A DNA stretch of 64,000 bases from Chrysomallon squamiferum (Eukaryota > Animalia > Mollusca). Shown in pieces: positions 5,333-50,761 of the stretch (the stretch's first letter is position 1; each line of letters begins with the position of its first letter). The notes under the pieces were generated by a model that saw only the letters and a list, made by a program, of their open reading frames with translations, did no database searches and was not told where the DNA came from. The translations under genes were made by a program, and so were the position numbers. The stretch covers positions 23,002,001 to 23,066,000 of the forward strand of contig CM022679.1 of assembly GCA_012295275.1 (NCBI GenBank), written 5' to 3'.

Positions 5333-5430
<98 letters not shown>

Positions 5431-10988: not shown

Positions 10989-11030
<42 letters not shown>

Positions 11031-11333: not shown

Positions 11334-11393
<60 letters not shown>

Positions 11394-12459: not shown

Positions 12460-12490
<31 letters not shown>

Positions 12491-14001: not shown

Positions 14002-14107
<106 letters not shown>

Positions 14108-15250: not shown

Positions 15251-15297
<47 letters not shown>

Positions 15298-15967
15298 AAA
15301 TCATTAGGAAAAGTATGCGATCTAGGTATATGTGTGTAAATATGAATAGATAGATAGAAAGATAGATAGATAGATAAAACAATATAAAAAATGGATGTAT
15401 GAGACAAATTTTGTTCACAAGTGAATGACCTTAAAAGTACGCCTTACTTCAAAACAACAAACTCAAAAGGCAGACAAAATTGTTTATTTCGCATGTGTTC
15501 CACGCTTCATCAAACGGAGCGTCAATTAATACATCTGTGTAGTACGAAATTAATACAAGTGCAGTTAGCTGTAAAAACCTTTTGTTCAACTGTTACTCTG
15601 AAAACGATTTTCATTCAATGCATCTAGTGCGGCTGTTTACCGTTATTTACGTACCCACAGAAAATCACATCGTAGAATTTTCAATGTGGATCAGATATAA
15701 ATATTTTAAAATACAGTTTTGGGTGATTTGAAAATACAGTTTAAATATTCTGAATACCACCGTGTTATGCTTTTTTTTTTTCATCTTTTTTTTTTTGTGT
15801 CGTTTATCTGTTAATCTTGATTAATAATGAAATGTAGCAAATAAAGAGTATACATGTCAAAAATATCAGGGCGACGCCATTTTTATTTATTTTTTATATT
15901 TTTTTTATAGTTATCGGGTTATCGCGTCCTGGTGAGTTAATTTATTTGAAACTTTCTGTGAAGAAAA

Positions 15968-16668: not shown

Positions 16669-17189
16669 ATTACGTAACTTTTAACAGGAAACTATTGTTA
16701 TTACTTCACGTACTTCTTTCACCAGTTAACAAGAAAACAAACTTTAATTTGAGTTCAGATAACTGTATGGTTTCCAAGCAGTGTTTCAAGATGTCCATCG
16801 GTTATATTGCACGCTAGTGATAACGTCCTGCGAAGGTCAACTTCAGTTTTGTAACCTGTTCAGTTATATCTGTGACATTTGTTTATTTCACTTTTAACCA
16901 GATGTTTATTTTTCGATCCTGGTATGTGATTTTCTTAACATACTTTTTTTCCCAGTCTTTGTTTGAGCGACTGCTAGTTAAATTCCTCGCCTGTTTGATT
17001 TTCGTCTTGTATGCCATTGCTGAAAAGACGCATGACTTGCAAATTTTTGTCTTCAAGCAGGTTTCAAGCTTTCCCTAGAAGATGTCACGGTACGTTTGCA
17101 AATGCGGATCAGACAGTCATGATTCTTCTGTGAATCTCTTTTTCTTCGCCGTAAAATTCATCTACCCAATCATTCTTTTGTACCTGCAT

Positions 17190-17241
<52 letters not shown>

Positions 17242-17253
17242 TTTCAGACAACA

Positions 17254-21030
<3,777 letters not shown>

Positions 21031-22087
21031 CGCTTTCAAAACCGACCAAGAGTTCGGGATTTAATAAAAGATCTCTCTAAAACACCAGTCTGGAATATTG
21101 ACAATAAAGCACTGACTGAAAACAGAACCACCAGTGTTTTTGTTATTTTTGTTTTATCTTAGAAATATTCCAGTTCTGTTTTTGAGAAATCTTGTAGGAT
21201 GGTGGTGGATGTTGATGGTTTAATAATATGCGATTTCGAAACGGAAAAACAAAGTTAAGATTAGTATAATACAGGATTAGGGGATCCTAACGTTTTCTGA
21301 GGTGTGTATTTGGATACTGTAGGTATCGAGATATCTTTGGATATCTTACTGTGGCTTGGTGAGTGTCAGTGTGTGTGTGAACGTGTGTGTGTGTGTGTGT
21401 GTGTGTGTCTGTTTGTGAATAGCTTGGTTATCACTATGTGCAGAGATATCACAGGCATCTTGATAAATCCGGTATCTTAATATCACTTTGATGGTGATAC
21501 GACTGTATCTTGAAATCTTGCGTATCACTGTGTGGGGTGGTTATCACTATGTGGGGTGGATATCACAGATTTCTCGATATCATGGCTATCTTGATATCTT
21601 GGTTATCAATTTGTCTGGGATATAAGAGGTATCTTGATATTTTGGGTATCACTGTGTATATGTAGGCGTCGGATTTCAGAAGTATATTTATATACAATGT
21701 ATGACTGTGAGGGACGCACGTAAAATTCATATATACACATTACCTATACCAATATAAAGGTAATGTAATAGTTTTAATGGTAATGAACAAACAAACAAAC
21801 AAAAACAACAACAAAAAAGGAAAAAAAAAAAAAATAGAACAAAAACAACAACAATTACAACAACAACATTCAGGTTTGTTGTTTTATTAAACACGAAACG
21901 AAACGTTAAAAAAACAACAACAGACAAACAAATAAATAAATCCAAAACCTCGGAATTACGAAAACACTATCATAACCACTGTGCAGCACTGATTATATTG
22001 ATACTCATACATAATTCATAAACAGCACCTTTTCAGACTGATATCTCAGTTTTGTTGTCGTTTTATAGTACCTGCAGTGTGGTAAAC

Positions 22088-27892
<5,805 letters not shown>

Positions 27893-27967: not shown

Positions 27968-28036
<69 letters not shown>

Positions 28037-28303
28037 CATAATAATAATAATAAATAAATAAATAATAAATAAATCAGTCAATCAATAATGTTCTGTCTTT
28101 TATTTTTTTATGTTATCGTTTACGTAAGTGTACTGATATAGTTTTCATGAGAGGCAATAAAATAATGTTCTTTGATACATGGCTTGCACACAAATGTAGG
28201 AAAATACAATATACTGAACCACAGAACGAGTTATATAGAAACAGGTATTGACAGTCAAAATGTCTACATGGTACAGTTTCTTCCCTTAGTTATACATCTT
28301 TTT

Positions 28304-28393
<90 letters not shown>

Positions 28394-28989
28394 GAGAGAG
28401 ATTTCTATCTTTATTTCAACAAAAGTTCAGGCTTGTAACGTTCTCCAGATTGCCATTAAAAAAACAAACATTTAAAGTAAATGACGATTTTGCCAGCTTA
28501 TAATCTTTTACACTTTTATATACAAAATCTTTTTAGACTCAAAATTCATCGGTATTTTCTCTCAATATTTAAAATGCATTAAAATGCATAATTCTAATGT
28601 TTAGAATGAAAAGACTTGTGTAAAGGTCTATTAAAAGACGTACTTCAAACCATAAACGTGGACGAGGAAAATACTGGGAGGAGGGTGTGGTCAAATGACC
28701 AAGTACGACAGGCTATGTTTCACTTCACCACCCTGATCAGTAGAGCAGTAAGTTTATAAAACTAAATATATTTCAGTTTGTTTTTCTCGAGGGATTTTCA
28801 AGTTCTTTAGGATTTTCTGGCTTCCAAAATGCGACTATTTGATGTTGATGACTGACAAAATTCAACACGTGACAATTTATCAGGTCCTGAGTAAAGAGCT
28901 TTTTCAGTTCACCTTTAATTTCAGTCATATGAAAAGCTTTTAGACATCTAGACAGTTTGTGTGTGTGTGTGTCTGTGTGTGAGGGAGGG

Positions 28990-29173
<184 letters not shown>

Positions 29174-29299
29174 AATAATATCTGCGATTGCTCACAGAAC
29201 TGCCTACATGATTTTACCACCAGCCTGAAAAGAGGTGAAGACAAAGGCAATTTAGATCTAAATTCTTTTTTCTTATAATTTAACATGAAACACAATGAC

Positions 29300-29670
29300 G
29301 AAACACTTACGATATACCGAAGAACAAAGAAAGATAACAACACTGACGAACACAAAAAATATCGCGACAAACTACCCAAAAACTGAAGTACACATAGTAC
29401 ATAAATATAAGTCGATTTGATATACGCTGTTCCGAAAACTTCTGGCCATTTATCAGGCATGTTTGGGATTTTTGGATTGCTCTTTTTTTCTGGCTTATAT
29501 AGTTGTAGCAGTAATAGTAGTAGTAGTAGTGGTAGTAGTAGTAGCAGTAGCAGTAGTGGCAGTAGTAGTAGTAATAGTAGTAGTAGTAGTAGTAGTAGTG
29601 ATAGAACTGGTGGTAGCAGCAGCAGCAGTAGTAGTAGTAGTAGTAATAGTAACAATAAAACAAATGAATG
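29300..29670 (+). repeat. Dispersed repeat with internal (AGT)n; inverted homologues at ~38700-39050 and ~47075-47400
   Basis: ccatttatcaggcatgtttgggatttttggatt..tatagttgtagcagtaatagtag matches the reverse complement of 47200-47277 and, more weakly, of 38830-38890. Confidence 0.7.
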
Positions 29671-30110
29671 TTACTTGCCAAAAAATGTCCAGTGTTCTAC
29701 ACTCACCCAAGAAGCATAGCTACTTTGTTTAGTTATCATATTACGACTAAACTTTGCGATACAAGGGGCATTAATATTTTTCTTCCAGCTCCAGATGTTA
29801 AAAAAAAATTCAATAATGAAAGAAAGAAAGAATTTTATTTTCATTTTCATTTTCACCAGCTTTGCGGAAGCTTTGAATGCGAACTGTTACTTCTAAGAAA
29901 GGAAGTTTGGTTAATTTAACAAGACAGAAATCGTAGCAAAATCTTCTATACAATCTGTACGAAACCTCAAGATTTCCACTGTTTTTTTCACAATAAAACA
30001 ACAACAAAAAGGCCGAATTATATATCATTTAATTGTAATCCTTCAAACTTCTTAAAATCTGTGCGGTCAGTTGTACCTGATAATAATAATAATAATAATA
30101 ACAATAATAA

Positions 30111-30860
30111 TTAAAGAACAATAATATTAGCATGCTTACTCTTAATAATCGCAAAAACTGAACTCAATTTATCAGTATCCCTCAATCCATTCACATTTAA
30201 GGTAAACAAAATTAATCTAAATTTAAAAAGTTATTATAACTTTATCCACTCTATACGTTCTAAAGCTTATTAATGTCCACCTCTTCATACTCATTCATAG
30301 CTTTTAAAACACTTTCCACTCACACCTTTCATATGGGCAGCTTGTCTTCCTTTGTTTTCTTTTTTCAACGAAGCTCCAAATTTTCTCATGCGACGGACAC
30401 TTAATAATGTTAGTCTAGACCGACGTGTTCATTTTCTCGACTGATTCTTTTCTGTCGGCGTTCTTGTTGATACTTTTCATTGTTGTGTTTTCATCTGAGT
30501 TGTCTTCTGTGTTCATTCCATCCTGCGTTTTTGTTTTCTTTTTCCTGAATACTCTTCATTCCTGTTGCTTTTGTTTGCTTCTAGTTTCATTTTCGTTTTC
30601 CCGGTCATGTGTGCTTACAACAATCCGTGCTGTCACTGTCATTTTCACTGTCTTGCTTGTCATCACTGTCATATTCATACTTGCTTTGACCACATGGCTG
30701 TCAGACAAACAGTTACAGCAAACTTTTATTTGATTATAATGTAAAACTTTAAAGTATTTGAAGCTTTCCACCGTCTTAAATTTCTTTGAATAGAGTAAAC
30801 TTTTTTACTTCTGAGAGAATGCTGATTGTAGCTCGTTCCGTTCGCTATTTTTGTTCACTG
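30111..30860 (-). mobile_element. Decayed Tx1/L1-type non-LTR retrotransposon relic (ORF1 zinc knuckle + ORF2 AP-endonuclease start)
   Basis: Minus strand gives IANGTSY../KSLLYSKKFKTVESFKYFKVLHYNQIKVCCNCLSDSHVVKA (CX2CX4H knuckle, frameshifted), then ~450 bp on FTLNVNGLRDTDKLSSVFAIIKSKHANIIVL* (APE motif I) at 30206-30111, in the expected ORF1-ORF2 order. Confidence 0.75.
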
Positions 30861-31181
30861 ATAAAACCTTATGTAAACTGGTGTTAATATCTCAATATTC
30901 GCTGCTTTCAGCTTTTCTTCCCGAAAACAAATAACGCGTGTACTTGTGAATTTTTATTTTAAAAGTATATAAGTCTTGAAACTTTGTATTGCATCGACAG
31001 TATTATGTTTCCATAATTAGATTTTCAGATATTTAATTGGATCAGTTATGTACTTAGAAACTGTGTATTTCACTAGGATAAGATCGGGAGTTTTGGAGAA
31101 TGGGTGGTGATGAAACTTTATAACGATTAAAAAAGATGAATGAATAAATATAAAAATATAATAAAACAAAAACAAACAAAC

Positions 31182-31193
31182 AAAAAAAAAAAA
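31182..31193 (-). terminator. Pol III terminator (T12) of the tRNA-Gly gene
   Basis: T-run on the minus strand starting 10 nt after the tRNA discriminator base. Confidence 0.6.
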
Positions 31194-31202
31194 GTATACA
31201 GA

Positions 31203-31251
31203 TGCGTCGGCCGGGAGTCGAACCCGGATCGACTGCTTGGAAGGCAACCAT
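31203..31251 (-). tRNA. tRNA-Gly(TCC), 3' part (gene interrupted)
   Basis: ATGGTTGCCT-TCC-AAGCAGTCGATCCGGGTTCGACTCCCGGCCGACGCA: anticodon loop, T-arm/B-box and acceptor 3' strand. Confidence 0.92.
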
Positions 31252-31589
31252 TTTTTTTTTTTTTTTATATGTATGTATTTTATTAATTATTACAATTGTT
31301 CTATGCATTTTAAGACAATACTTTTTTAATATTTTGTAATTGACAAAATAAACAATACAGATGTAATTATTTGATAAAATAACGAAAACAGATGTGAAAC
31401 CCATATAAAAATTTAAAAAAAGAAAAACCATAAACTGAATTTCAAGAACATTTAATGTTATAAATATTATCAGTAATTTTTTCTTTAAGTTCTTTTTTGT
31501 TTAGAACAAAATTAAATAAACATCTTTTCAGCATTAAGATATTATTTCCTCATAATCATTCTCTATTTATTACATGTATTGCACGTTTT

Positions 31590-31622
<33 letters not shown>

Positions 31623-33975
31623 AGAATTAATTAAAATCTGTGTATTTCCTTCTTTAATATCCTATAAAATCTATCTTTGTCATAAAGAAAAAAAACACAT
31701 AACACTGTTTAGTAATAGAGATTATTATTTTTTTAATTTTGAGACTAGAAGTGAAGAATGTTGAGCTTCAAATGCAACAATAAAAAGGCTTGCAGGTAAA
31801 GACATTACACCACATGCAAAATAACAGCATGAATGAAGAGAACGATAATATTTCAATTTCACCGTAAATTAAGAAATAATTCTGTATTTCTAAAATTTTA
31901 TTTACTCTTTTCCGTATCAATAATTTTTTTTTAGTAAATATACATCTTTTTTTAATAATTTAATTTATATTTGCTAAATTGCATTTTTATTTCACCAAAC
32001 CATTACTTAATTAACCTAATATAAAACACAGCACATACATATATTTTTGTCTATAGATACATGCATGTAGAAAGAAAGCAAAAAATGGAAATTACATTTT
32101 CAAAACCTTTCTGCAAGTACAATTATTTAACATATCACACATCTAAGTGTATCAGTTAAGTAAATAACAACACTAACTATATACACAATACAATTAAATT
32201 AACAAATATACTTTGTCAAATAAAGATAGGATAATTATTTCTCAATTTTTGCCAAGGCTTATTTTGATGAAATATACCTGTTAAACAGTAAATGAAACCA
32301 ACACTTATAAAAACTAGACTGAAAATTTATTATGGTAAACAACTTATTTTACTGGCAAAAATTATTTTAAGTCATTAGGTTTTCTTTGATCAAATGCTCT
32401 CAAATGTGAACTGATGTTTTACCATTTTAGAATTGTGAATTGATAAACAATAATCTGTAATTCAGTATAAAATAAGTAAGTGAATAAATAAATAATTCAA
32501 CAACTAAAATAACAAATAAAAAACCCCTAAAAAAGAACACCCAAACATTTATAAGTGATTTTTGCTTATTTTAACTGATCCATAAATATATCAGGCAAAT
32601 TAACATTAGACAAAATCAAGCATTTATATTCCTTTCACTGTTATTTACTAAATTAATTTATGTAATATTTAATTATTTTATTTTCTCTTGCAACTGTATG
32701 GATATCAATTATTAAAGACATTTTATTTTAATAATAATAATAATAATAATAATTATAATAATAATAATAATAATAATAATAAACACGTGTATTATATAGA
32801 ATACAATGAATCAACAGATATATAAATTATAAGCAACATCCAAGTATAATGACAAAATACGAATACTACAGAGAAAATTCATCTAATAACTGAGACTTAT
32901 TGAAATGATTATTTTTAGATCAACACTTTTTTAAGTCACCTAAATAAACTATATATGCATGTATGTATGTACCATGAATTATCAGAAAAATAATCATAAT
33001 TTAGATCATTATGAAACATTTAACATTTATACTCATATACATTCTGTTCACACAAGTCTGTTACATGCACACAGACACATGCTGAGAAAAAGAAAAACAA
33101 CTTGCAAAAAAATTTAATCTGACAAAAGAAAATGTCAAATTTTAGCCTGTCTAGAAAGCTTTTTTAACCTGAGTGATTATTTCACTCATTGACCGACTCA
33201 CTACCAAGACTACAACACACAGCCAATATCGAAAACAGTTTTAGTCTATGGCAGGAGTACTTTAGTTTATTTCATACTTTCTGTGAGTGTATGTTCACAA
33301 GAGTCATTCATAATATACAGAAACTGTTATGCCAGTATAACTTTTAGTGACCTCCCTTGGAATGCTGTATCAACCATTGTAAAGTTATGTCTATATTTTC
33401 CTTTTCCTTGCATGAAATCGAATAGCAACATATTTCTCTGTCCTGGATAGCTGAAAGATTCATCCTCTCTATAAGTTCCTTTTCATCAAGTGCTTCAGAT
33501 AAATCTCTTTTGTTTCCCAACACAAGTACAGGAATGCCCTGCAGCTGTGGTTTATCAAGCAGGTTGTGTAGCTCATTGCGGGATGCCTCCAGTTTGTCAT
33601 GATCTGCTGCATCAACCATAAATACTATAGCATTTACACCTCTGCAGTATCGTTCCCACATGCTCCTGAAACGAGGCTGGCCACCAATGTCCCACAGCTT
33701 GATTGTTACATTTCCTTTAGTAATCTTCCGCATATTAAAGCCAACTGTAGGAATCATATCTTCACTGAACTGACCCGACGCAATAACATTTACAAATGTG
33801 GTCTTTCCTGAGTACTGCAACCCTACTAAAGTTAATTCCATCTCTTCTTTCCAGAAAAGACTTCTAAACCAATCTAATATTCTTTGTAAAAACGCAAACA
33901 TGATGGCTTTGTGATAATAAAGAATGATAGAACGAACGCCTTCTTTCTTCTTCCTGATTACAGGAAGTACATCCC
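31252..33975 (-). mobile_element. Processed ARL8 mRNA retrocopy (74-nt 5'UTR, CDS, ~2.1-kb 3'UTR, poly(A))
   Basis: Intronless CDS; AATAAA at 31284-31279 followed by A16 (31266-31251); flanking direct repeat aggcaaccat at 31242-31251 and 33976-33985. Confidence 0.9.
33344..33901 (-). CDS. ARL8: ADP-ribosylation factor-like 8 GTPase, 185 aa, intronless
   Basis: [92 protein letters not shown]: classic Arl8. The true start is the ATG at 33901, not 33985. Confidence 0.97.
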
Positions 33976-34008
33976 AGGCAACCATGCTAACCGTTACACC
34001 ACCGACGC
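33976..34008 (-). tRNA. tRNA-Gly(TCC), 5' part (gene interrupted)
   Basis: GCGTCGGTGGTGTAACGGTTAGCATGGTTGCCT: acceptor 5' strand pairs perfectly with CCGACGC of the 3' part; contains the A-box/D-arm. Confidence 0.92.
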
Positions 34009-34213
34009 CATATTATGTGCATTTCAGAAATGTGTCCTGACCCGGTATTTTCTTCATCGCAGGCGTTGGAAAGAAAAAAACACTGTTACTACAATGTGTA
34101 AATCGTGGCCGTCTTTGATGCCACTCTGCGGCGGAAATAAATATATCTTAAAAAAATCACATAAAAACAAGTACAGAGTCAGGAAACATTTCTGAAATAT
34201 AACATATAGTACA

Positions 34214-34239
34214 GCGTCGACGGAGTAACGGTTGCCTTC
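34214..34239 (+). pseudogene. Degenerate tRNA-Gly 5' fragment
   Basis: GCGTCGACGGAGTAACGGTT-GCCTTC matches the tRNA 5' end at 17/20, with a 9-nt deletion between the two GGTT repeats. Confidence 0.45.
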
Positions 34240-34647
34240 TTGTTCTGTTGATATTTCGGAGATTTTTGTGGTTACGGTGATTAAATAAAACGAGTTCTAC
34301 ACCTGGGTGGATTAAACATATTTCTTATAGCGGTGTCGGAAATGTTTAATCTAATAAAAAATACTACGAGTCTTAGTGTTTATTAGCAACCACCCCAACG
34401 ATAAATAACCGATTAAAACTTACTGAGCAATGAAAAACATAATACAAAGCTATCACAAACTGTTGGTGTATTATATAATAACAAATTAATATAATTATCC
34501 TTCTCAGTATATTTCTTTCTTATTATGTGGCGTACTATTAAACAGTATATCTATTTTGTGATATAAGTCTATTTATGAGATTTTTTTTTTTTTTTTTTTT
34601 TTTTATTTTTTTTTTTTTATCACATGGTTTTCTTTTCCCAAAGATTA

Positions 34648-34678
<31 letters not shown>

Positions 34679-34842
34679 ATAGTCTCTCATATCTCTTAAA
34701 TAGTCTCTCTTATATCTATCTATCTATCTATCTATATGGTATTTATTTTTCTTTATGATTTAACGCAGAAACACCAATTTTTATCTAAATTGGGACAGAC
34801 AACATTATATGCATCCATAATCATCAAGTATTTTACCTAACT

Positions 34843-34991
34843 GGGCAATTCCATGACTCAGAAGACAAAAGAATAATAATAATTTCAATATTTCATTATG
34901 CAAAGCGTGAAAATGTATTCCCAAAACTTCTAACTTACCAAAAAAAAAAAAAAAAATAAAAAATAAAAAAAATAATAAAAAAGTAAGTAAA

Positions 34992-35023
<32 letters not shown>

Positions 35024-35931
35024 TTAAAAAAATGAAAATGAAAATTCTTACTCACTGTTATTTTTTCCTTGTCAATCTGACATGTTCTTTCTAATTCGCT
35101 TAGTACTATCCAGGGCAAAATAAAATAAAAAAATGTATCTGAGACAGAAAAGAAAACTGTAACATCAGTCACAAGTAAAGTAAGTGCAGTGTAACATCCG
35201 TCACATGCATACAAATCAAGAAAAGATTTTACAGCTGCAGCATTTTTTTGAACAAAATGTCATTGCACAAAATACCAGTGATACTGTTACCCACAATTCG
35301 TCGGTACTGCCTCTGATGAAGAAACACGAAATGAATCCCTCAGTGGAAAGAGGTGTTTGCTGCTGTCGGAACCATCAGAGGAATTTCTCGGTTCCACTAC
35401 CTCACCCCTGAGAATAGTCGCTGTGTCACCTTCATTTTGACGAACGATAAAGTATAATGAAGAGTTCACCCATTGTGATTAATCATGCTTTTGAAAAAAA
35501 AAAAAAAAAAAAAACACTCACATTCTGATCATGCATTAAAATGAGGTTTTCATCACCAGATGCTGCTTAATACGGACAGATAAGTTAATGTTACGTTATC
35601 GGACAAAATGTAACATCCGTCACACAAGATGAATTAAAACTGGTTGTCTTCTGTAGACTTTCACTCCAATGGAAAATATTTATTTCAACAATTTATAGAT
35701 TTCAGACAGTTTTTCACCCATGTCCTTTTCATGTAGCATCCGTCACGCTAATACTTCTCATTACATATCAGCCCATTCATATTCCTGATCTCCTTTCTCT
35801 GTGACACCAAATAGTCCTGGACACAGGCAAGCCTGTTACTTAGAGCCATGTTCCTACGACTTTAGTAAACAGAGCAGTTGGAATGATCTCCAACCCCTTT
35901 GAATGTAACGTCCATCACCGTCGAATTGCCT
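34843..35931. mobile_element. Probable non-autonomous DNA transposon
   Basis: Short terminal inverted match GGCAATTC/GAATTGCC and five copies of tgtaacatccgtcac-like motifs (~35159, 35190, 35609, 35733, 35904). Confidence 0.45.
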
Positions 35932-38709
35932 ATGTACATATTATTTGTTATGCTAACACTTTTTTATGTCGTAGCACATATTTCTGTGTAATATTAAATG
36001 ATAAATGATGATAATAATACCAGCACTAATAATATAAATCAATCAACAATTTGTTCATAGTAACGATATCTGTATTTCGCCATGTTCTTTTTATTTTATT
36101 TTATTTTTAAATTCTGGATAGTTGTTTATTTGAAATTTTAGATGCCAAAGTATTCTCGTTATGTTTCGAGGACTTTTTATATCAAAACTGCAAAGATATT
36201 TGAGAATACGTTCTTTTATATTCCAACATTGTGAGATATATATCTGTAATACCTTTGTAAAAAATACGCTTGAAGATATTAACAATAATATTTTGTTTCT
36301 TTCTTTCGTATTCTAGACATTATCTACTTACGTTAGAAGTTTCTAACAAATAAACCTGTTAAGCAGAACGTATTTCTTTGAGAAAATTCGGACAGTTCAA
36401 AGAAATTGCGTTATCTGACAACGTGACTTCAAATAAACGAGTTAAGCGGATCGTATTTCTTCGAGACAATGTAACTGTGACTTCAAATTACCCAGTTAGA
36501 AATAGATAAACATTGATCACCCAGCAAGGATTGTCAAAAATGTTTTACTTTATGCGTGGATAGAATAGAGAAATAATAGCTATTGTTTCCTATTCTATAA
36601 AGGTCATAATTTAATGTTTTTAAAGTAATTGGTGGGGAGTAGGGCTAGCAAGATAGTTTAAGATGACTGCCTCCTATTGGAAGCGTTTGTTAGCATTGGG
36701 GACTGTATGGTCATCTGACAATGCAAATTCTGCTTGGAATTTAAGAGGGGCGACATTCTCAGAGAGAAAAGCGTTGCATTCTGGCCTTGGACATAGCAGG
36801 ATCTTAACCAACTGCTAGTGAAGGTAAGCAGTTTTATATTTAGTTACAGGTGTAACGAGAATCACTTTCTCAACTCTTTTCTGGGAAAGTCACGCCCTCT
36901 GTCTTGTCAGAGAGAGTGCCTATTGTAGACGTCCTTCACAACAGCTCTCTCTGATTAGCACGTTATTTGTTTTCTGTCTGGCTGTCTGGTAATTGAAGGG
37001 AGAAGGTAAGCGCCAACACGAGAGCTCAGTCAGTCGGGGAAAACCAAAGTTTTTGAACGCATTGTCTTTACGGAAGAACGTGGTAAGCCATTGTTTGTTC
37101 ATATTTTGATATACATTAATATACACACATTTTTAATTATTTAATCAGTCCTCCGTGCAGATTCTTATCTTATCTTGGTTTTCCCCGTATGACCTTACCC
37201 GTATCATTACTAAAAATGATTTAATTACATGTTTTATTGATTATATAATGTATTATCGTCAAGTCACATTTATATCATAATTAAATAATTAACTTGAACC
37301 TTAAACTGTGTTATGTTTATTTCTCCAGTGCATAGATCAGATTAATTGATTTTTATCACCTTCTGTCATTTCAGCGTTTGTATTCCTTGTTGCATGGCCC
37401 TTAAAGCACGTCAGCGAATGAGTGCCACGCGAATCTCGTCAGCGACATCTGACGGGTTTGTGATTGGACTTTGTTTTCCTGCAGCAGTTCGTCCCCAAGT
37501 ATTGTCTATGTGCAGAGTCTAATCATACGTACATAAGACAGAGAATATTCAAATTCATATACATACGCACAAACTCATATAAAGATAGATAGATATCTCT
37601 TTTTGCGTCTGTATTTGATATAAAAGTCTCTACATTCCAAAACGTCTCCCAACCTGCCCCGGTCTCTCCTATTTCTTTTCCATGAACCGGCCACCCCGAC
37701 AGACACGCAGATTCATTGCTCGTGAGTCTCACAACTGAGATTTTTATGATTACGGTGATTAAGTAAACGAGATCTAACCCTGCATGTATTACCCAAATTT
37801 CTTAACAATAACAGCTGCTCTAAAAATAGTGAATGATGAGTCATTGTGTTTATTAGCAGCCAACCTAACGATGAATAACCGATGAAAAGATACTGGTGAA
37901 TCAAAAACATAACACAAACCTATTACTGGTGTTTTACGTGATAATAAATAGACGATAGGTAGAATAACTAATATAATTATCCTTATATATATATATATAT
38001 ATTCCGTGTTTAGGCTAGAATCAAACAAGTGTTATTATCATATTAACGTTGCTAATTTCAGACACATAAATCATACTAATGTTTTGCTGGTGTTGTTGGA
38101 TTTTTTGTGTGTTTGTGTGTTTTCTTATTATTATTTTTTTGTTTTGTTTTGTTTTCGTCTTATAAGTCTATCGATTGACTTAGTGCTGATTTAATATGTT
38201 TCATTGTTGATATAATATTTATGTGATTATAAAAGAGTTCACAATCATCATAAATAATATAAAACAGATCAAAACAGACGTTTTCCTATGTTTTATCTTA
38301 CATGACACCCATTAAAATTATAATATTGTGTTCAGTCCTGAAATCTACTTCCATAGTTTCAGGACTTTATCAAAAAATGTTTTTCCATACTTATTCCATT
38401 TAATTTTAAAAGCTTACTGATCCCAAAATTTCATCGAAGTTGCATTTTAAAACAAATATTGATCTCTTAATATCTTTTAGTATCTAACTTATAAAATAGA
38501 ATCTACATGGTTAGAAAAATACATTATCCTTGTTCGACACACAAACACTGACATGCATACAGATTTGACTGAGAAAAATAATAATCCCAGATAATGTCAT
38601 TTTAAGATACAACACATTTTGATCATCTCTTTTGTTATGAACCTGTAGGTAAAGACATTCTCGCTCGATTTACATATCAGCCAGTAACTTTATTCTACTT
38701 ATGCTTACA

Positions 38710-39154: not shown

Positions 39155-39302
39155 CATCATCATCATCTAGCCATACGTTACGTGTTTGTGATTTGCTTTT
39201 ATCGGCTCTAAAATAAATGAATATGTCCATATAAAACAGCGATAAGTCACGGTATGACAATGTAACAGTAATAACATCAAAATTAAATAAACAGCTAAAC
39301 AA

Positions 39303-39349
<47 letters not shown>

Positions 39350-39688
39350 GAAATACAAAATCTTAAATAAGGTCCAGGGATTGCACCAGTTTAAAAACTA
39401 TTAGATTATAAACAAGATGAAATAAAATTATTAACTGATTCATATTTCCATTTGATGTCATCAATATTTGACATTCAGATAAGTCAATCGGCCACCTCCA
39501 TTTTCCGTACATCATCCAGTCTTAACGAACATAAGTGGGTCAGCCACAAATGTTTACCATTCAAACAGTTTTAAGCCGAATGAATTTGAACTATCATATT
39601 TTCCCATCACAATTTCCTTATATTTATCTTTTTTATTTTTATATTATTATTATTCTTTATTCATTTGTTTTATTATTATTATTATTAT

Positions 39689-39804
<116 letters not shown>

Positions 39805-39866
39805 TTATTTTGCCTTTTAAATAAAATTCATTTCGTAAACAACGTTCTGTGTGAAATTCTAAAACT

Positions 39867-39922
39867 TTCCCGGAAATGAGCTTTATAAGGCAATAATTAC
39901 AAGATCAAAACATTTCCTGGAA
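39867..39922. promoter_or_regulatory. Pair of STAT/GAS motifs upstream of IFI44L-like copy 1
   Basis: TTCCCGGAA (39867) and TTCCTGGAA (39914) both match TTCN3GAA. Confidence 0.5.
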
Positions 39923-40690
39923 TGTAGAATATGTATTTTTCAGTGATTCTTTCGACTTTCTGTTAAATAAATATAGTATAGAAAGAAATGCACTGCAATT
40001 TAAATTTTTGTTGAATCTAACATTTACTTCCTTGAGCTAAACAAAACTTCAGTTAATTCTAATTGACATATATGGATGTAATTTTCATATGGTTAATACA
40101 TTGTGTCTGTATTTGTTATTCCGGATTGTCTTCGCGAACGAACTTTTGAAACCTGTAATGGTAAATATCTGAATGATTAGTGATTAATTATTAGATTATG
40201 AGCGTATATATTTTTTCTCTTCGTTTTTTTATTTTTCAAAGTAACTACATAACGACAGACTAAACTTGAAAAACGAAACCATAATATAATTAGTCCTATG
40301 TTACAATCTGAAGTACTTAAATGATTACTATTCAGTGTGAATTGTCATCAGTAAATTTAATAAGGTATCACTGCAGCTCATTTGCTGGATAAATTTGGAT
40401 CATTCGATCCAAAGCGGTACATGTCACGTGACTCACTCTATACTCAGTAGGTTTGTCATACTACCTGAAACTTGTCTTTTGTCACTGTGATTATTTTAGT
40501 CTTAACCTTTAAATTAAATATTTCATTTTGTGGTATTAGAATTCGTGTTATAATATTACAATATTATCATTTTAAAAACCTATGCAATTTAATTACACAT
40601 TTTTGCAATAATTACTTAAATAAAGTCTCCACTAAATGTCTGTATGTGTGTGTCTAAGAATTTTATTATTTTATTTTCAGATTTGAAAGA

Positions 40691-42347
40691 ATGGCTGTGG
40701 TTTTTAGTGACATTGACAAGAAACAAATTTCAGAATGGATAGGAGGAAACAAAGATTACACTTTGCTGTTCAAAGCCTCCAGAGATGGATGTAACGCCTC
40801 AGACATTTCACACAAGATGTGACTACCAGGGTCCGACTATTACACTCTGTTACAATATAGATAACTGTGTGTTTGGTGGATACAACCCACTTAGCTGGAA
40901 CAGCTCTGGAACATGGACAACAGATAACAATGCTTTTCTCTTTCGACTGAAATTTAAAGGAGCTAGTTCTCCCAAAAAATATCCTATTAAAGCAAATAAT
41001 AACAATGGAATGTTAAATCATAGCGCTCATGGACCAGTATTTGGTTCTGGCCATGATTTAAGCCTGTTCAAAATAATATTGACAAAACTGGAAACTATTT
41101 TCAAGGAAATACTACTTGCAAATTTGGCACTAGTTATGAAGCATATGGTGAATCTTTTGACCAGATCACAAACAACAACAGTTATTTGGACATTGAAGTG
41201 TATCGCGTCTCGGATGAAAAAACAACACCTTCCAATCGTGGTAAGGTCCAAAGCTATGTTTTTAAAAAAAATAATAAAAGGTAGGTCATTAATATGTATT
41301 GTCATAATCACACATGTTCAATATCTCTAAAGAACAATTAGTATAGTTGTAGATATGTACAAAAAAAAAAAAAAAAATATATATATTTCTTTCTAATTAT
41401 TAAAATATTAATCATTAATTTTTCAGATGCTTCAAAAGAGCTGGAAAGACTGTGGCGCAAAATGCCAGAAGTTTCAGTGAAGGTGAAAACCAAATAGTAA
41501 AACCCAAAATTTAATTTTCAATTTTTTTGTTTCATTTTTAAAATCAAGATTTAATTTTCAATTGTTTATTTTATTTTCTTTCTTCTTTCAGGATGGCATC
41601 TGTGATAAAGTTTTTGCTTTTGGGATATGATAATGTCTTGGTTTAAATTGGTGTAAAGTATTTCTCTTTTCTACCTGACAGTCATTACTGGTTACTGTAT
41701 TTTTTTGCGTTACTGTAATTTAAATATAATCTGAAATAAATAAAGGAAACTGTGAGATTCATATACATTTTTTTCTTTGTTATTTTGTCAGTCGCTGAAA
41801 ACAGATTTAGAGAAATACTGTCCACCAGACAGCACCAAAGTTCCATTTGTAAACATACTGCTGATTGGTCAAATTGGAGCAGGAAAATCCAGTTTCTTTA
41901 ACACAGTCAATTCTATTTTCAAAGGGGAGATAACAAGCAAGGCAAGGAGTGGAACAGCAGAACATAGTCTGACAACTACTGTAATATTGTCTCTATTTAA
42001 TTCAGTCTTTCAAAAATAACATCTATTTAATTTACAAAATAATACAGTTATAATCTTCCATTATGGCAAATCTTTAATCACTGAGCACTTACCTACACAG
42101 AATTATTAGGCATATCTATGAAATGACAGAAGCCAGATGGAATCAAAAATAACATGTATGACATAATGAATATAAACATTTGAATATTAGCAAAAGTCAG
42201 TATCCTCAGATTGTGATTTAAAATCCCTGATTCAGTGAACAAGATGACAAGTATCATGATGTCTCTGATATATAGGTATTTTCTTTAATGTGTCAGTCAA
42301 CAAATCATCAAGTTTAGTTGCCAAATCAATTTTAGTAAAGAGACTTT

Positions 42348-42412
<65 letters not shown>

Positions 42413-43418
42413 AAAAAAAAAATAAATAAGTAAATAAATAAGTAAATAAATAAATAAAATATAAAACATTGTCATTTTTCTATTTCTGATATACCTTTAT
42501 CAAGCACAAACAGTTTAGTTTGCAGCATCTTGAATATAAACTCTAACTCAGAAAACTATCAAGAATTCATAGTGCTAAAGCTGCTTTTCTTAAACTCTGA
42601 TAGAAGATGTTAATAATGTGATATCATGTGTCTGTCTCCAGTTTCGAATGTACCAAATAAAGTCTGGAACATCAGGGAAACCTTTGAAATTTCGACTTTG
42701 TGACACCAGAGGTCTTGAAGAAGACATAACTTTGGATCTTGTGGATCTGATTGCCATCATAGAAGGACATGTATCAGACAGATTCCAAGTGAGCAAATTC
42801 ACAGATAATCAGACAACTAATAAACACTATTTATTTGTAAGAAACTATACAAACAGTTATTTGAGCACGCACACACACTCACTAACTCACACATTCCTGT
42901 GTATACATACAATTAGTTGTCAGTTAACATTTTAAGAAAATGAAAATAAAACTGTAAATGAATGTCTCCAGAAAGAATGTTTGTTTATTCTCTGACTGTC
43001 ATTGTGTTCCTTGTGAAGTCTGTTTATCAGTAAGCAGTCATTTCTGTATATATTTATTCTAAAAGTGTATAATAAAAACGTATCTGTATAATCCATCTAC
43101 ATATAATTCTTTTTTCTCTTAGTTCAATCCATCAAGTTCAATAACACCAAAAAGTCCAGGGTACATCAAAAGCCCCACAATGGCTGACCAAATGCACTGC
43201 ATTGCCTTTGTTGTAGATGGCAGCACTGTGGACATGATGCCAAAGCATATTATAGAGTTGTGGAAGAATCTTCAGAAAAGGGCAAATGATTATGGTAAGT
43301 GCAGTATCAACAACGTGTTAAACATATAGTTAATTGTTATTTTCAAAATTCGAAATCATTATCATGTTTTTTTTATTATTAAGAGGAAAAAATATTTCAC
43401 TCTTAATAATATTCATTT

Positions 43419-43487
<69 letters not shown>

Positions 43488-43810
43488 TGCAAAGTGTTAC
43501 TTAAATCTCAAACCATTTATATTTTTGCAGGATTACCCCAGGTGGTCATTTTGACCAAAGTGGACAAAGTTTGCCCTGTGGTTAATGAAGATGTCAGCAA
43601 AATGTTCCTGAGCAAAGCACTGGAAGATATGACTGAGAAAGTTTCTGAACTGATGGCAATTCCACAGAATCATGTGTTTCCTGTGAAAAACTACGAGAAA
43701 GAAGTAGAGATGGATGAAAATGTCGATCTGTCTTCGCTTATCTGCATCAAACGGATGCTACGTTTTGCTGATGATTATTTGGAAGATAATCTGATGAAGA
43801 TGAAGATTAA
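40691..43810 (+). pseudogene. IFI44L: IFI44L-like copy 1 (TLDc + P-loop GTPase-like), three 1-bp indels as assembled. Exons 40691-41240, 41427-41482, 41792-41980, 42642-42788, 43123-43294, 43531-43810
   Basis: Exon-by-exon paralogue of copy 2. +1 at ~40797 (stop at ~40820), -1 at ~41070, -1 at ~43793. May be an intact gene with consensus errors. Confidence 0.8.
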
Positions 43811-45532
43811 ATATAGATTAATTCAAGCTCTCTCTGACTGTATATTATATCAACTTTTAAAATTTAAACATTTGATAAAATATTCATTAATCAGTTGTAC
43901 CGATCAGAATATTTCTGATAGTTTTGACATGTGATAGGCTGGTAACAAATCCAAATAGGCTAAATACTTTGAGGCAAAAGCTGTTGTGACTTTTTTATCT
44001 CTGCATTCTGTCAACAAGGTGAATACGAATATCATTCCAACTGGTATTATTTCTGAAAGATACTGATCATATCCTTTCATTATCATGAAAGCATTGTCTT
44101 GTACTCTTTTTTCTTCTTCTTTTTTTAAACTCTGATTTTATCATATACTTAAATAAGACAGAATATTGTTCAAGTGTTCTCCAAACAACTGACTTTTTTT
44201 AATGGAATAAATATTAGCAGCAGCAGTAGTCAGATATTTCAGATCTGACTAATTATCTGCTAATTATATGCGTTAGGAATATTAAAACATGTTGTGTGAT
44301 TCATTTTAATCCTTTGTAGACAATGTTGTATAACATGGAATTTTATTAAATCTTAGATTGATTTTAATATTTTAATATTTTATATACTGTATACATACTA
44401 ATACTATATATATATATACGAACAAACATACATTCATATATACATATTGATTTCCATGATTAATATCTTTTGTTAGTACATGTACTTATTATTTTACAGA
44501 AATTACAGAAAATAATTTTCGGTGTTTAACTTTTTTTTCTTAAATTTAATGGAAAAGAAAAATGTAACTGCTTTTTATAACACATTGGTTACAGGAATAA
44601 AGACTGATTTTTATTATCATATTTGTTATTGTTCTTTTTCCTATAGAATTTTGTTTGTTTGTTTAATATGTTTATATTTGTAAAATGAATACTGTCTCTT
44701 TTGATGCTCCAACACATCTTGGCACCAAACACGAAAGACAGAGAGGTAGTCCTCGCTGCAGTAACAACATACATTCTGAACACAAAACACAAACTTTGGA
44801 CTCTTTTTTTTTCTTTTCTTTTTATGACACAAAAACAAACAACAGTTATATGAATTTATTGACTTACGGATTGATTGGTTGAACAGCTGATGGATCTATG
44901 GATGGATCGGCTGGTTGACGGATCAATTTGAATAGCCAATTAAATTAATAATTAAAAACAATTACTATATGTACCTAGTTTCAGACCATACTAATCCGGG
45001 TTTTTTATGTTTTTTTTTTTTTTAAATATAATAAAAATGAAAATAAGTTCATGTTCTTCTTCTTAGCTGCAGGTATTTATAACATCTTTTAAAATAAAAT
45101 AAAATAAAATAAAATAAAATAAAATGTAAATAAGTTAACTACATTCATGTTCTTATTCTTTTAAGTTACACTGTTTACAGCATCTTTTAAATCAATAAAA
45201 ACACCATTGGCAAACAAATAACAAAAAAGCAGACAAGAAGAGAACAAACAAACAGGACCCAACCAACACAGACCCGGTGATGACTAGGAGACCTTCAACG
45301 CGCTAGACAAGTGCCGGAAACAACAAGGAGCGGATAACGTCTACGAAACATCGGAACCGACTCGTTGCGATCCGATATGCTGGACACTCTCAGCTTGCTC
45401 TGAGTAGCACGTTAATTTTTTTCATTTCATTTCATTTGTTAGGGCAGAACTGTAGAACGACTGCCGTGGAACGGTCGCTGTCGAATGAACACACTGGTGT
45501 AACTAGTTACATATAAATAAATAAATAAATAA

Positions 45533-45573
<41 letters not shown>

Positions 45574-47467
45574 CTGTTTTCATTGCATTAACCCATATGT
45601 GACTGGTGTGACAGATTACTACATTTCTGTTCATCTATATTAGTCTTTATGACTATACTGAATGTTCAACGCTAGTGCGAACACATTTTTTTTTCTTCTT
45701 TTTCTTGTGTTCTAGTGTACAAAAACGTGAATACGGTATTCATAATATACTGCATACATAGATCCATATCTGATACCCCTATGGAAGCCAACTCGAGTAG
45801 TAACCTGCCCGAGACAGATACATACTGTACAACTTAGTGGAATCCTCGTGACTCCGAGAAATCAGTACTAGAATATACGCCTGTATGTCATATTTACATG
45901 TAAATAATAAAAAGTACAAAACAATAAATGAAACAACATTACCAATAATCCCTATTTTTGTTTAGGAAATTGTAAATATTGTTTCCTTGTAATGACACTG
46001 CTAAATGGAATATGATTTAAACAGAAGAAAAATATCACGTATAATAATAGACAGTTCCTCTGTTCGAGTATAACACTCCTTGGTATGCACGTCCCGTTGA
46101 ACACTCATCCGCAGAGAAACTGTGTATTATTATTAATTATATTTTTTATATTGCAGTTATATTAAAGTCAGTTAAATAGAAGCGTGCGACGTAAAACTGA
46201 ATAAATATTCAAAGGAGTTACCTCACACTGTTATGCCATCTGAATCACCATGTCCATTTTAAAATGCACACATTGTTTGTTTCTTGCTTTGTTGGTTTTT
46301 TTTTTTTTCTCAAAAAATATAACTGATCAGGGAATTTCTAGTGAAAAAAAATAGAAAACTTTCGTTCGATTTTAAACAGGAAAAACATCATTTTCAATGG
46401 AAGTTTATGCTGTCTCAAGTGACACTCTTTCTTTGCCTTCTTGTGGCATTAGAGAAAACGCGAAACGGACGAAAAGTAACAATGTGTATTTTCATTAAAA
46501 AGCAATAATAATGAAAAAATAAATAAAACTAAAAATCTGGCTCATTTTCAACTAAACAAAAACAAACAGTTCATTGCAAAGATGAAATGCTGCTCATTAT
46601 GATGGAAGACATTTGTTGTATCTTTGAAGAATAGTTTATTCGAGCCAGGCTGAGAACAGATGACAATTTTCAGCCGATTCAGGCTTCACGGCCATCTGCA
46701 AGGTGAAGGCGCCAAAATCTAACTGTACACAGTTAATTTTTAATGCCATACTTTCTTCTTTTCTCAACACACACAAGTGGAATACTAATTTGTGAGTTTA
46801 GACAATAATTGTAAGCCCTTATTTCGTTGTACACTTTAACAATATTGTAAAACGATGTACAATAAAACTTGCCAGTATCACTGGCTATTTTGTACGATAA
46901 CAATTTTTTGTTTTATTGTACTGCAGTATTCCATATATATCGTGGGTGTTTCATTGTATTTATGTTGAGGTGTTTTTTTCGGGGGATTGGATTTTTCCTT
47001 TAAGTGGAGTCGTAATATAAGTAAGCCAGGTAGCTCCTGTTCTTGTGTGACTGAAGAAACCCGAAAAATATTTTAGCAAGTAACTTTATCTACATTCGTA
47101 TTACTATTACAACTACTATTACTATTACTGCAATTAATACTATTAATGCTGCTGCTGCTCCTATTACTACAACTGCTACTTCTACTACTACTACTACTAC
47201 TACTACTATTACTGCTACAACTATACAAGCGAGAAACAAGTGAAATCCAGATATCCCAAACCTGCTTGATAAATGGCAAGATATCCGAATTCTCAAGTTT
47301 TCGGTACCTTGTCTATCAAATCGACAATATTTAAATAGTTTTTCGGTGGTAGTTTTGCAATGTTATTGGTGTTAGTGTTATTATCTTTCTTTGTGTTTCA
47401 GTACATCGTATGCGTTTAACTCTATTAGTCTTTTTTTCTCAAACAGCTGTAAGTCATTGTATTATTT

Positions 47468-47515: not shown

Positions 47516-47997
47516 CAACAAAAAACAATAATAAAATTAAAATAAAACTTTAAAATAAAAATAATGAAATAAAAAAAACATATAAAAAATAAAAAATATA
47601 TATTAATCTCAATTTAGGTCCAGTGGTCGCAAGATTTTAAAAACCTGTTAGATTATAAATCAGGTAAGTTAATATTTTTAACTGTTTGACATGATCACCA
47701 CGCCGACGATATTTGATATTCAGAGAGGTCAATCTATGACCTCGATTCTCCGTACATCATTCAGGATTAACGAACGTACGTCGTTCATCCACAAAGGTAT
47801 GGCATTCAAATCGTTTTAACCCGAATCAATTTGATCGATTTTATTTTGTCCATCATTTTTATTTATTTATCTTTATCTGTTCTGATTCCCCCCACACCTA
47901 CTTAAATAAAATTCACTTCGTAAAAAAACGTTCTGTGTGAAATCCAAGAACTTTTAGGGAAATGAACCTTATAAGGTCAAAATACTTCCTAGTAGAA

Positions 47998-48009
47998 GAA
48001 AGGGAAAGT
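47998..48009 (+). promoter_or_regulatory. ISRE/IRF-type element upstream of IFI44L-like copy 2
   Basis: GAAAGGGAAAGT matches GAAANNGAAA(G/C)T. Confidence 0.45.
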
Positions 48010-48519
48010 AGAGCTTGTATTTTTCCGTGAAATTTTTCGACTTTTTGAGAAATAACTTATAGTATCTAAAGAAGATACAGCAATTTAGATTTTCGTTGAA
48101 TCCAACATTTACTTCTGTGAGTTAAACAAAATTTTATTTAATTCTAACTGATATACCTGTAACATAGGGTGTTCATTTTTAAAAAGTTATCGGTATACTG
48201 TCAAAGATATAAGTCTCGGTAAGTGTTATTTTCATATCATTAACACAATGTGATTCTGTCTGTTGTTTTCAACTGACTTAACTTTTGAATTAAATATTTC
48301 GTTTTGTAGTATTACAATTGGTGTTATGATACTACAATATTATGACTTTAAAATCGTACACAATTTAATGACACCATTTTGCACTAATTAGTTAAATCAT
48401 GGGACTACTTACCGTATAATAAAAGGAAATGAAACTTTTAATATTTTCATTTAATATACGTATGTCTGTCTGTCTGTGTGTGTGTCTAAGAATTTTATTA
48501 TTTTTATTTCAGTGAAAGA

Positions 48520-50723
48520 ATGGCTGTAGTTTTTAGTAACAGTGACAAGAAACAGATTTCAGCATGGATAGGAGGAAACAAAGATTACACTTTGCTGTTC
48601 AAAGCCTCCACACATGGATGTAACGCTCAGGCATTTCACACAAGATGTGACTACCAGGGTCCGACTATTACACTCTGTTACAATATAGATAATTGTGTGT
48701 TTGGTGGATACAACCCACTTAGCTGGAACAGCTCTGGAGAATGGACAACAGATAAGAATGCTTTTCTCTTTCGACTGAAATTTAAAGGAACTAGTTCACC
48801 AAAAAAATATCCTATTAAAGCCAATAATGACAACGGAATGTTAAATGATAGCTCTTATGGACCAGTATTTGGTTCTGGCCATGATTTAAGCCTGTTCGAT
48901 ACTTATACTGACAAAACTGAAAATTATTTTCAAGGAGATACTACTTGCGACTTTGGCACTAGTTATGAAGCATATGGTGAATCTTTTGACGAGATCACAA
49001 ACAACAACTGTTATTTGGATATTGAAGTGTATGGTGTCTCAGGTGAGAAAACGCCACCTTCCAATCGTTCTAAGGTCCTAAGCGTTTTTTGATAAAAAAA
49101 AAAAAAATAACAAGCAAAAAGTCAACAGCAACAACAAAATAACCAGTACTTCATTGATATTTATTGGCATAATCATACATACATGTATATCTGCACACAT
49201 GCTCACTTTACAGCAGAATCAGTGTATTTGTAGATATGTACAAAAATAAATAAAAAATTACTTCTTTCTAATTATTAAAACATTAATCATTAATTTTTCA
49301 GATGCTCCAAAAGAGCTGGAAAGACCGTGGCGCAAAATGCCAGAAGTTTCAGTGAAGGTGAAAACCAAACAGTAAAACCCAAAATTTAATTTTTCAATTT
49401 TTGTTTAATTTTCAGTTGTTTATTTTGTTTCTTTCAGTATGGCATGTGTGATAAAGTTTTGACTTTTGGGATATGATGTTTGGTTTAAAATAGTATAAAA
49501 CGCTTCTGTTTTTTACCTAACAATCATTACTAGTTACTGTGTTTTTTGTATTACAGTAATTCTAATATGCTTTGTATTCAGTAAAGAAAACTGTCAGATT
49601 CATATACATTTTTTTCCTTGTTATTTTGTCAGTCGCTGAAAACAGATTTAGAGAAATACTGTCCACCAGACAACACCAAAGTTCCATTTGTAAACATCCT
49701 GCTGATTGGCCAAATTGGAGCAGGAAAATCCAGTTTCTTTAACACAGTCAATTCTGTTTTCAAAGGGGAGATAACAAGCAAGGCAAGGAGTGGAACAGCA
49801 GAACATAGTCTGACAACTACGGTAATATTGTCTCTATTTAATTTAGTCTTTCAAAATAAACATCTATTTAATTTACAAAATAATAAAATTATAATCTTCC
49901 ATTAATGGCAAATATATGTTTAATCAATGAGCAGTTATCTACACAATGAAATTATTCATAATGATGAAAACAAGTTGTAATTTTTGATATAGCATAAAAA
50001 CTCTTTGATTTAGAAAAATATCCTACATAAATAGTTATTTAATGATCCAAACAAAAATAAACCTTAACCCAGAAACCAAGATGGTATGAAAATAACATTT
50101 TGATGACAGTATTTTTATATGATATATTTTCTGAATCAAGCACAAACAGTTTAGTTTGTTTTAAAATCTCTTGACTGTGCAGCATCTTGAATATAAACCC
50201 AAACCCTCAAGGTTAAAATCAATTATGTTAATAAAGAGACAAGCAATGCAGCTTAATTGGAATATCAGTCTCAATGAATAGTATATTGGATAAAACTGTC
50301 TTTTAGGTTATATTTTATTTGTTTTACTTAAAATATTACTCAGATAAATAATAATAATGATAATAATAATATTAATATTATGAATAATAATAATAATGAT
50401 AATGAGAATAATAAAAATAATAATAATTATATTAATAATAATAATAATAAATTGACAAAATGAAATAAATTGTCATTATGATATCAACTTTCTCTCTCCA
50501 GTTTCGAATGTACCAAATAAAGTCTGAAACATCAGGGAAACCTTTGAAATTTCGACTTTGTGACACCAGAGGTCTTGAAGAAGATAGAAGTTTGGATCTT
50601 GTGGATTTGATTGCCATCATAGAAGGACATGTATCAGACAGATTCCAAGTGAGCACATTCTTTGATAATCAGACAACTAATAAACACTATCTATTTATAA
50701 GAAACTATAACCACAGTTGTTTG

Positions 50724-50761
<38 letters not shown>

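Follow-up and report, generated by a model that had tools for sequence, protein, structure and literature searches.

A processed ARL8 retrocopy inside a split tRNA-Gly(TCC) gene of Chrysomallon squamiferum

The window considered here, the whole stretch of DNA that was analysed, comprises 64,000 nucleotides of the mollusc Chrysomallon squamiferum (assembly GCA_012295275.1, contig CM022679.1, positions 23,002,001 to 23,066,000 of the forward strand); the coordinates below are those of the window. On the minus strand, 31203-34008 reads as positions 1-33 of a glycine tRNA gene with the anticodon TCC (tRNA-Gly(TCC)), then an insert of 2,724 nt (31252-33975) that is sense to the tRNA, and then positions 24-72 of the same tRNA. 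The insert consists of a 74-nt 5' portion, an open reading frame (ORF) of 185 amino acids (33901-33344) encoding ARL8, a 2,077-nt 3' untranslated region (UTR) with the signal AATAAA, and a tail of 15 A. This locus was compared with public sequencing runs of one organism from three studies, nine of which hold at least half of the region's words. Contigs of five of the eleven listed runs were used (X1, X2, X6, X7 and X8, with X3, X4, X5, X9, X10 and X11 left out); over the insert, the DNA runs are X1, X2 and X7 and the RNA run is X8, and all figures for contig pieces apply among the pieces listed. The features are given below in the direction of the tRNA, where GC stands for guanine plus cytosine, CDS for coding sequence, Pol III for RNA polymerase III, and TPRT for target-primed reverse transcription.

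34009-34124, minus strand: upstream flank common to a multicopy class of tRNA-Gly loci, from contig depth.
33986-34008, minus strand: tRNA-Gly(TCC) positions 1-23, with the 5' acceptor strand, the A box (~33990-34001) and the D arm; identical to intact genes in contigs of other organisms.
33976-33985, minus strand: 5' copy of the 10-bp target-site duplication, tRNA positions 24-33.
33975-33975, minus strand: extra G, not in the parent gene, likely a reverse-transcribed cap; parent pieces end at 33974 in X1, X2, X7 and X8.
33902-33974, minus strand: ARL8 5' UTR, within the parent first-exon piece 33779-33974.
33344-33901, minus strand: intronless ARL8 ORF of 185 amino acids, open, with the parent exon edges at CDS nt 123, ~204, 278, 440 and 511 joined.
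31267-33343, minus strand: ARL8 3' UTR, 23% GC, with AATAAA at 31279-31284; X8 RNA contigs lie over much of its length.
31252-31266, minus strand: poly(A) tail, 15 A.
31242-31251, minus strand: 3' copy of the target-site duplication; from TPRT geometry, the first-strand nick would lie at its tail-side edge.
31203-31241, minus strand: 3' part of the tRNA-Gly, with the anticodon TCC, the B box (31214-31224), the acceptor 3' strand and the discriminator; contigs at 45-105x single-locus depth.
31182-31193, minus strand: run of 12 T, resembling a Pol III terminator, 9 nt past the 3' end of the tRNA; read from the sequence.

The 10-mer found at both ends of the insert is the sole duplication of at least 10 bases between the two junction regions, and the chance of meeting it at one fixed place is 3.7e-7 at the composition of the window. 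When the insert and one 10-bp copy (2,734 nt) are removed computationally, ARAGORN predicts from the resulting empty site a 72-nt tRNA-Gly(TCC) whose acceptor stem has 7 bp, and on the whole window it returns no tRNA; Rfam applied to 28000-38000 gave nothing beyond one 17-nt T-loop match below threshold. The rebuilt tRNA is identical at 72/72 bases to 15 of the 138 distinct contexts from 139 loci that carry the motif of tRNA positions 24-42 in contigs of other organisms. An earlier reading of the locus made from the sequence only (the sequence-only reading) had claimed that excision would restore a canonical gene with a T-run terminator downstream, and both claims hold. It had also placed the insertion directly after the U that precedes the anticodon, which fits only one of the two cuts. 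From TPRT geometry, the second cut would lie at U33|U34 and alone adjoins the anticodon, whereas the first-strand nick would lie in the D stem, on its 3' side, at tRNA position 23|24 or 24|25, the latter being the alternative because the A there could belong to the poly(A) tail. The primer strand at the nick is GC-rich tRNA sequence with a single T able to pair with the tail and no T-tract, in a window of ~30% GC. The A and B boxes of the split gene are now ~2.8 kb apart.

The product of the ORF matches ARL8 over the full length: it hits human ARL8A (PDB) with an E value of 6e-112, contains the Pfam Arf domain, and is identical to its closest homologue at 174 of 184 positions; the protein collection searched held no exact match to it. 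Identification as ARL8 and the described anatomy, a co-oriented insert with a 5' UTR, an intact ORF, AATAAA and poly(A), thus stand as first read, with AATAAA ending 12 nt before the tail. Codon 5 of the insert is Leu, while a Phe codon (G at 33887) is present in all four of the runs X1, X2, X7 and X8 and the closest homologue also has Phe. An upstream ATG within the 5' copy of the duplication is in frame with ARL8 and adds 28 residues, for an ORF of 213 amino acids. This is probably chance, because a promoter is lacking and a T5 run 117 nt from the tRNA start would lie in the path of Pol III; expression of the retrocopy from the tRNA promoter would be unlikely because of the same run and the distance between the A and B boxes. 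A stretch of the 3' UTR at 32440-32530 has very high depth in DNA-run contigs (bins up to 3,879 in X1) and is therefore taken as a short repeat within the ARL8 3' UTR.

There is an intron-bearing ARL8 parent in this species, since exon-sized DNA pieces run into unlike sequence at the exon edges. In X1, X2 and X7 the insert is covered by such pieces (33779-33974, 33461-33623, and up to 33393); the loose end beside 33461 has an AG-type acceptor, and the joint at 33623|33624 has unseen sequence between its two sides in all three DNA runs. Over 2,045 aligned nt, four long parent pieces of X2 show 5 substitutions and 1 gap relative to the window (~0.2%). Because this divergence is far below the difference between two flank haplotypes of X1 (11/168), the retrocopy is younger than much of the standing variation. 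The sequence-only reading had named the parent and its divergence as what to look for, and its impression of a recent event is supported.

That reading had also noted that the insert starts with GGG. The three letters are present, but the first is not part of the parent: the parent pieces end one base short of it in all four runs, and an X8 RNA contig that continues for 12 nt has a different first letter; the G at 33975 is therefore an addition relative to the parent. Some parent transcripts begin further upstream than 33974. Extra 5' G residues on full-length insertions have been ascribed to a copied cap (PMC3287187; the papers cited here by number were available in part, and statements about them refer to those parts). 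The G at 33975 is likely such a copied mRNA cap, with an untemplated addition or a parent allele as possible sources. The parent sequence at the poly(A) cleavage site falls in a coverage hole in all runs examined.

Presence of the copy differs among the runs. The contigs of X2 break exactly at 33974, 33779, 33623, 33461 and 33393, and their depth is 24-30 for those with coding exons only and 21 for a 3' UTR contig, compared with 11-15 in the flanks; the breaks and the about doubled exon depth are as expected with an intronless copy that starts at 33974. In X7, contigs of 1,685-2,903 nt cross these edges unbroken at a depth of 52-58, and a UTR contig has 62, which is the diploid flank depth, so X7 is without the copy. 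The sequence-only reading had suggested a check of other individuals for the empty allele, and X7 is a run that lacks signs of the copy. The depth of X1 climbs with exon share (74, 90, 126), which fits, without proving, a carrier with uneven graph cleaning. The retrocopy is probably polymorphic for presence and absence. Two points count against this account: X1 contigs are interrupted at only some of the exon edges (33393, 33461 and near 33699) and run on at 33974, 33779 and 33623, and X2 is possibly the source of the assembly, hence not independent. Both flanks of the locus are unique and are matched by contigs in all DNA runs. Among the pieces listed for the five runs, no contig spans either junction with 31 nt on both sides. 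X2 shows no 3' junction contig, which makes the junction test insensitive in both directions, and its absence proves nothing because hardly any contigs, in any run, cover the 3' UTR at its AT-rich end.

The tRNA belongs to a multicopy class. Copy number was taken as contig depth over the tRNA 3' half divided by an assumed single-locus contig depth; depths of 3,918 (X1), 1,332 (X2), 9,900 (X6) and 2,710 (X7) give 56, 105, 73 and 71 copies, respectively, the last falling to ~45 on the diploid depth of X7. Contigs over 33983-34124 have a depth of 1,603 (X1) and 2,094 (X7), with 6 other letters and 3 gaps, compared with ~50-70 for the unique flanks, and the upstream 116 bp are common to a class of ~25-35 copies. 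Loss of one copy is unlikely to have a consequence for the animal because dozens of near-identical copies exist. Damaged tRNA-Gly copies are found in X1, X2, X6 and X7; some have internal deletions, and one class, which reaches a depth of 291 in X7, has 4 nt duplicated at 31226. The upstream flank and 5' half of the tRNA-Gly occur a second time, decayed and head to head with the split gene, at 34178-34240 on the plus strand, ~170 bp away. This copy lacks a 3' half and appears to have a short deletion within it; the match has 3 mismatches in 20 positions, and chance would be expected to give no such match. An X7 contig with a depth of 30.8, about that of one haplotype, links 30934 to 34132 with unread sequence between, and suggests a haplotype without the whole ~460-bp tRNA unit and without the insert.

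The absence of the parent introns, the poly(A) that follows AATAAA, and a target-site duplication from which the empty site can be restored are the features of a processed retrocopy, and a very young one made by TPRT is, with high confidence, what the locus contains. The proposal that a cellular mRNA was mobilised in trans into a tRNA gene agrees with the intron-bearing parent, with the tail and duplication, and with the lack of the copy in X7. An assembly or library artefact, in which a cDNA or chimeric read was joined into the tRNA locus, would account for the lack of a junction-bridging contig and would be placed where assemblers err, in a high-copy repeat. It would not account for the exact 10-bp duplication, for the additional G at the 5' end or for the differences from the parent that are private to the insert, nor for X2 contigs that break at every exon edge and at 33974 with exon depth about doubled, nor for flanks that are unique and matched in all DNA runs, and is very improbable. 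Slightly less credit again goes to an RNA-level chimera. In this scenario, modelled on the tRNA/LINE-1 chimeras of mammals, a 5' tRNA half released by a cut at the anticodon would have been joined to the ARL8 mRNA, through ligation or template switching, before insertion took place. Such chimeras exist (PMC13174262) and the 5' piece here ends at U33, the cut site of tRNA halves. However, both halves continue into genomic sequence here: the 5' half is preceded by the upstream flank found at many tRNA loci, and the 3' half is followed by the trailer and the T-run. In addition, the duplicated bases are internal to the tRNA and do not bracket a tRNA-mRNA unit, an intact cap is indicated by the extra G, and the published tRNA halves are mostly antisense (PMC13174262).

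Whether the tRNA gene was chosen is a separate matter. The retrocopy was likely written by the reverse transcriptase (RT) of a long interspersed nuclear element (LINE), and the possibility that the nicking enzyme prefers this tRNA site is evenly balanced. The TPRT part of the sequence-only reading is accordingly firm, while its tRNA-targeting element is held at that even level, with no element found. A preference is supported because the sequence around the nick is GC-rich, against ~30% GC for the genome, and has no T-tract, because the insert is sense to the tRNA, and because the target class is multicopy (45-105), the kind used by such elements (PMC4640811, PMC4494074). It is further supported because LIN15_SM, a tRNA-inserting element that lacks long terminal repeats (non-LTR), ends at the same tRNA position, 23|24 (PMC4640811). 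The multicopy target and sense orientation are necessary for a tRNA-specific non-LTR insertion and not sufficient. Endonuclease sites of the L1 type have a T-tract consensus. No such site is present at the first nick, so the insertion is not of the mammalian L1 type by this feature. An untargeted insert would land in a tRNA body with a probability of ~5e-6 to 5e-4, given assumed genome sizes and tRNA gene counts. The non-carrier X7 has one 48-nt contig (depth 54) that runs from 31226 across the tail-side edge of the duplication through the T-run of the tail and 15 nt beyond.

A number of results weigh against a preferred site. The 48-nt contig has 2 other letters and 26 nt on the tRNA side, below the 31-nt bridge rule, with its letters unread, and it could alternatively come from a tRNA copy that is truncated at its 5' end and adjoins A-rich DNA. 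It is the only one of the 51 contigs listed on the tRNA 3' half (X1, X2, X6, X7) to enter the T-run; among those listed, every loose end at the edge of the duplication continues as tRNA. No RT-like frame was seen by eye among the 12 stop-free frames of at least 150 amino acids in the window, i.e. an autonomous element was not found there. Dropping L077, which is not a tRNA, from the 138 distinct contexts leaves 137 tRNA-like contexts of unknown taxa, scored for 3' junctions only, and none has a foreign junction at tRNA 23|24; within the 139 loci there is also no match to the locus flanks. Patterns joining a tail to the tRNA (T-run) number 0 in metagenome contigs and 0 in viral contigs. Agreement within one base with one of three known sites, as seen for LIN15_SM, has an estimated chance of ~1 in 8, and the site-specific LINEs R2 and SART1 are stringent for their own 3' UTR (PMC4176376).

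The same young TPRT retrocopy may also be pictured as the work of an untargeted LINE that struck a tRNA gene by chance, perhaps through the open chromatin at Pol III genes, an explanation whose probability falls a little short of even. The event is a single one picked from a very large scan, and 100-1,000 young retrocopies combined with 1,000-3,000 tRNA genes (assumed numbers) would place at least one such hit per genome at 0.7-38%; 492 retrocopies, most of them recent, are reported for one land snail (PMC9719178). The missing autonomous element, the 0/137 foreign junctions and the uniformly empty-type loose ends are what chance would leave. Chance does less well with a sense copy at the LIN15_SM position, with the T-run junction contig of a non-carrier, and with a nick that is not T-rich, unlike the L1-type sites of mammalian retrocopies (PMC3747384). 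Taking site preference further, one can tentatively propose an active, undescribed site-specific LINE whose cut in tRNA-Gly(TCC) genes falls between D stem and anticodon and which, in contrast to the stringent R2 and SART1, takes as template any mRNA with a cap and a poly(A) tail. On this similarly tentative view, a host transcript of 2.7 kb would have been written in full into a multicopy site that is fixed and harmless.

The mechanism of the TPRT retrocopy would begin with a LINE protein binding the capped, spliced ARL8 mRNA in trans through its poly(A) tail. The template strand of the tRNA gene would then be nicked at 23|24 or 24|25, as the duplication suggests, and cDNA synthesis primed on the tail with one T pairing. 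Copying would proceed over the full 2.7 kb to the cap, the presumed source of the extra G that is observed. A cut of the second strand at U33|U34 would leave positions 24-33 duplicated. The observed outcome is a split tRNA gene; its loss would be harmless among dozens of copies, and the promoterless retrocopy is probably silent and segregating.

The retrocopy is real and well defined, and nothing observed places it in a tRNA-specific family. It offers a clean view of a gastropod retrocopy at birth, full length and apparently marked by the cap, and is usable as a presence/absence marker. If the site preference is true, tRNA-Gly 23|24 would be added to the targets of non-LTR elements, with a site-specific element mobilising host mRNA in trans; the pairing of a fixed multicopy target with a relaxed choice of RNA is sought for RNA-templated gene-insertion tools, and a LINE of such relaxed choice would be a natural writer of "mRNA to safe harbour." If the tRNA was hit by chance, the locus is an ordinary young retrocopy that has knocked out ~1-2% of one tRNA family.

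Elsewhere in the window, 1-6851 and 8649-15635 form a tandem segmental duplication (~7-8.6 kb, 94% identity) with a partial third copy at 16960-22552. A gap of 200 N (7752-7951) lies between the first two copies, which could be a real duplication or a haplotype duplicate. Two tandem paralogous genes with TLDc domains occupy 39264-46130 and 47524-53219, with ~70-82% DNA identity. A scan of the 27 A-runs of at least 12 in the window gave the ARL8 insert and 2 A-rich 10-mer matches ~7.1 kb apart. The first coding exon of a gene for a mitochondrial cardiolipin hydrolase (PLD-like) is found at 61252-61737 on the minus strand, its sole match being a Gigantopelta aegis protein that is 69% identical.

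Among known systems, the closest in anatomy are the processed retrocopies made by LINEs, such as those of L1 acting in trans (PMC3747384, PMC4176376, PMC3287187), which show the same intronless spliced copy, poly(A), short duplication and extra 5' G. They likewise have an intron-bearing parent elsewhere, and presence/absence polymorphism is likely here. The site is different from that of L1-type retrocopies, being GC-rich, without a T-tract, and inside a tRNA gene. Neither an mRNA retrocopy inside a tRNA gene nor a non-LTR family that targets tRNA-Gly was met in the literature searched (partial coverage, without Repbase, which is not proof of absence).

Insertion within tRNA genes is known from the NeSL-related non-LTR elements LIN15_SM (tRNA-Arg), LIN25_SM (tRNA-Glu) and NeSL-1_TV (tRNA-Pro) (PMC4640811). 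All three share with the ARL8 copy a sense insertion inside multicopy tRNA genes, and the 3' ends of LIN15_SM between positions 23 and 24 of four tRNA-Arg isoacceptors (numbering added here) match its boundary within one base (PMC4640811). The differences of LIN15_SM from the ARL8 copy are further reasons to doubt a preferred site here. These elements are autonomous, come from planaria and Trichomonas and use other target sequences, whereas the present cargo is a host mRNA with a 10-bp duplication; in the available part of the source, LIN15_SM has neither a poly(A) tail nor a 10-bp duplication, and the one 5' boundary shown implies a far longer overlap (PMC4640811). NeSL-1_TV deletes target bases, unlike the duplication at this locus (PMC4640811). 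Dada DNA transposons also insert in the anticodon region of high-copy tRNA genes, tRNA-Gly included, but are antisense at anticodon sites and have short duplications and no poly(A), and cannot explain a spliced mRNA copy (PMC8869645). Dada was ruled out by the anatomy of the insert, which is a sense copy of a polyadenylated ARL8 mRNA.

The Tx1 clade of the L1 superfamily combines several of the relevant properties. The available text on this clade describes no family inside the body of tRNA-Gly and no full-length host mRNA at a Tx1 target (PMC4494074). Tx1 elements are, however, widespread in molluscs and gastropods (PMC10294476, PMC11203168), and Tx1 is the L1-superfamily clade recovered from gastropods, for which the Gigantopelta column of the table, as read here, gives 7 sequences (PMC11203168). 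Members often prefer repeats and small-RNA genes and have duplications of ~10-16 bp; Keno inserts in U2 small nuclear RNA, and Tx1-Mar has a poly(A)-tailed passenger, SINEU (PMC4494074), in line with the view that Tx1 elements carry poly(A)-tailed non-autonomous RNAs into their targets (PMC4494074). The LINE that mobilised ARL8 was probably of this L1-superfamily or Tx1-like kind, with Tx1 as its putative identity.

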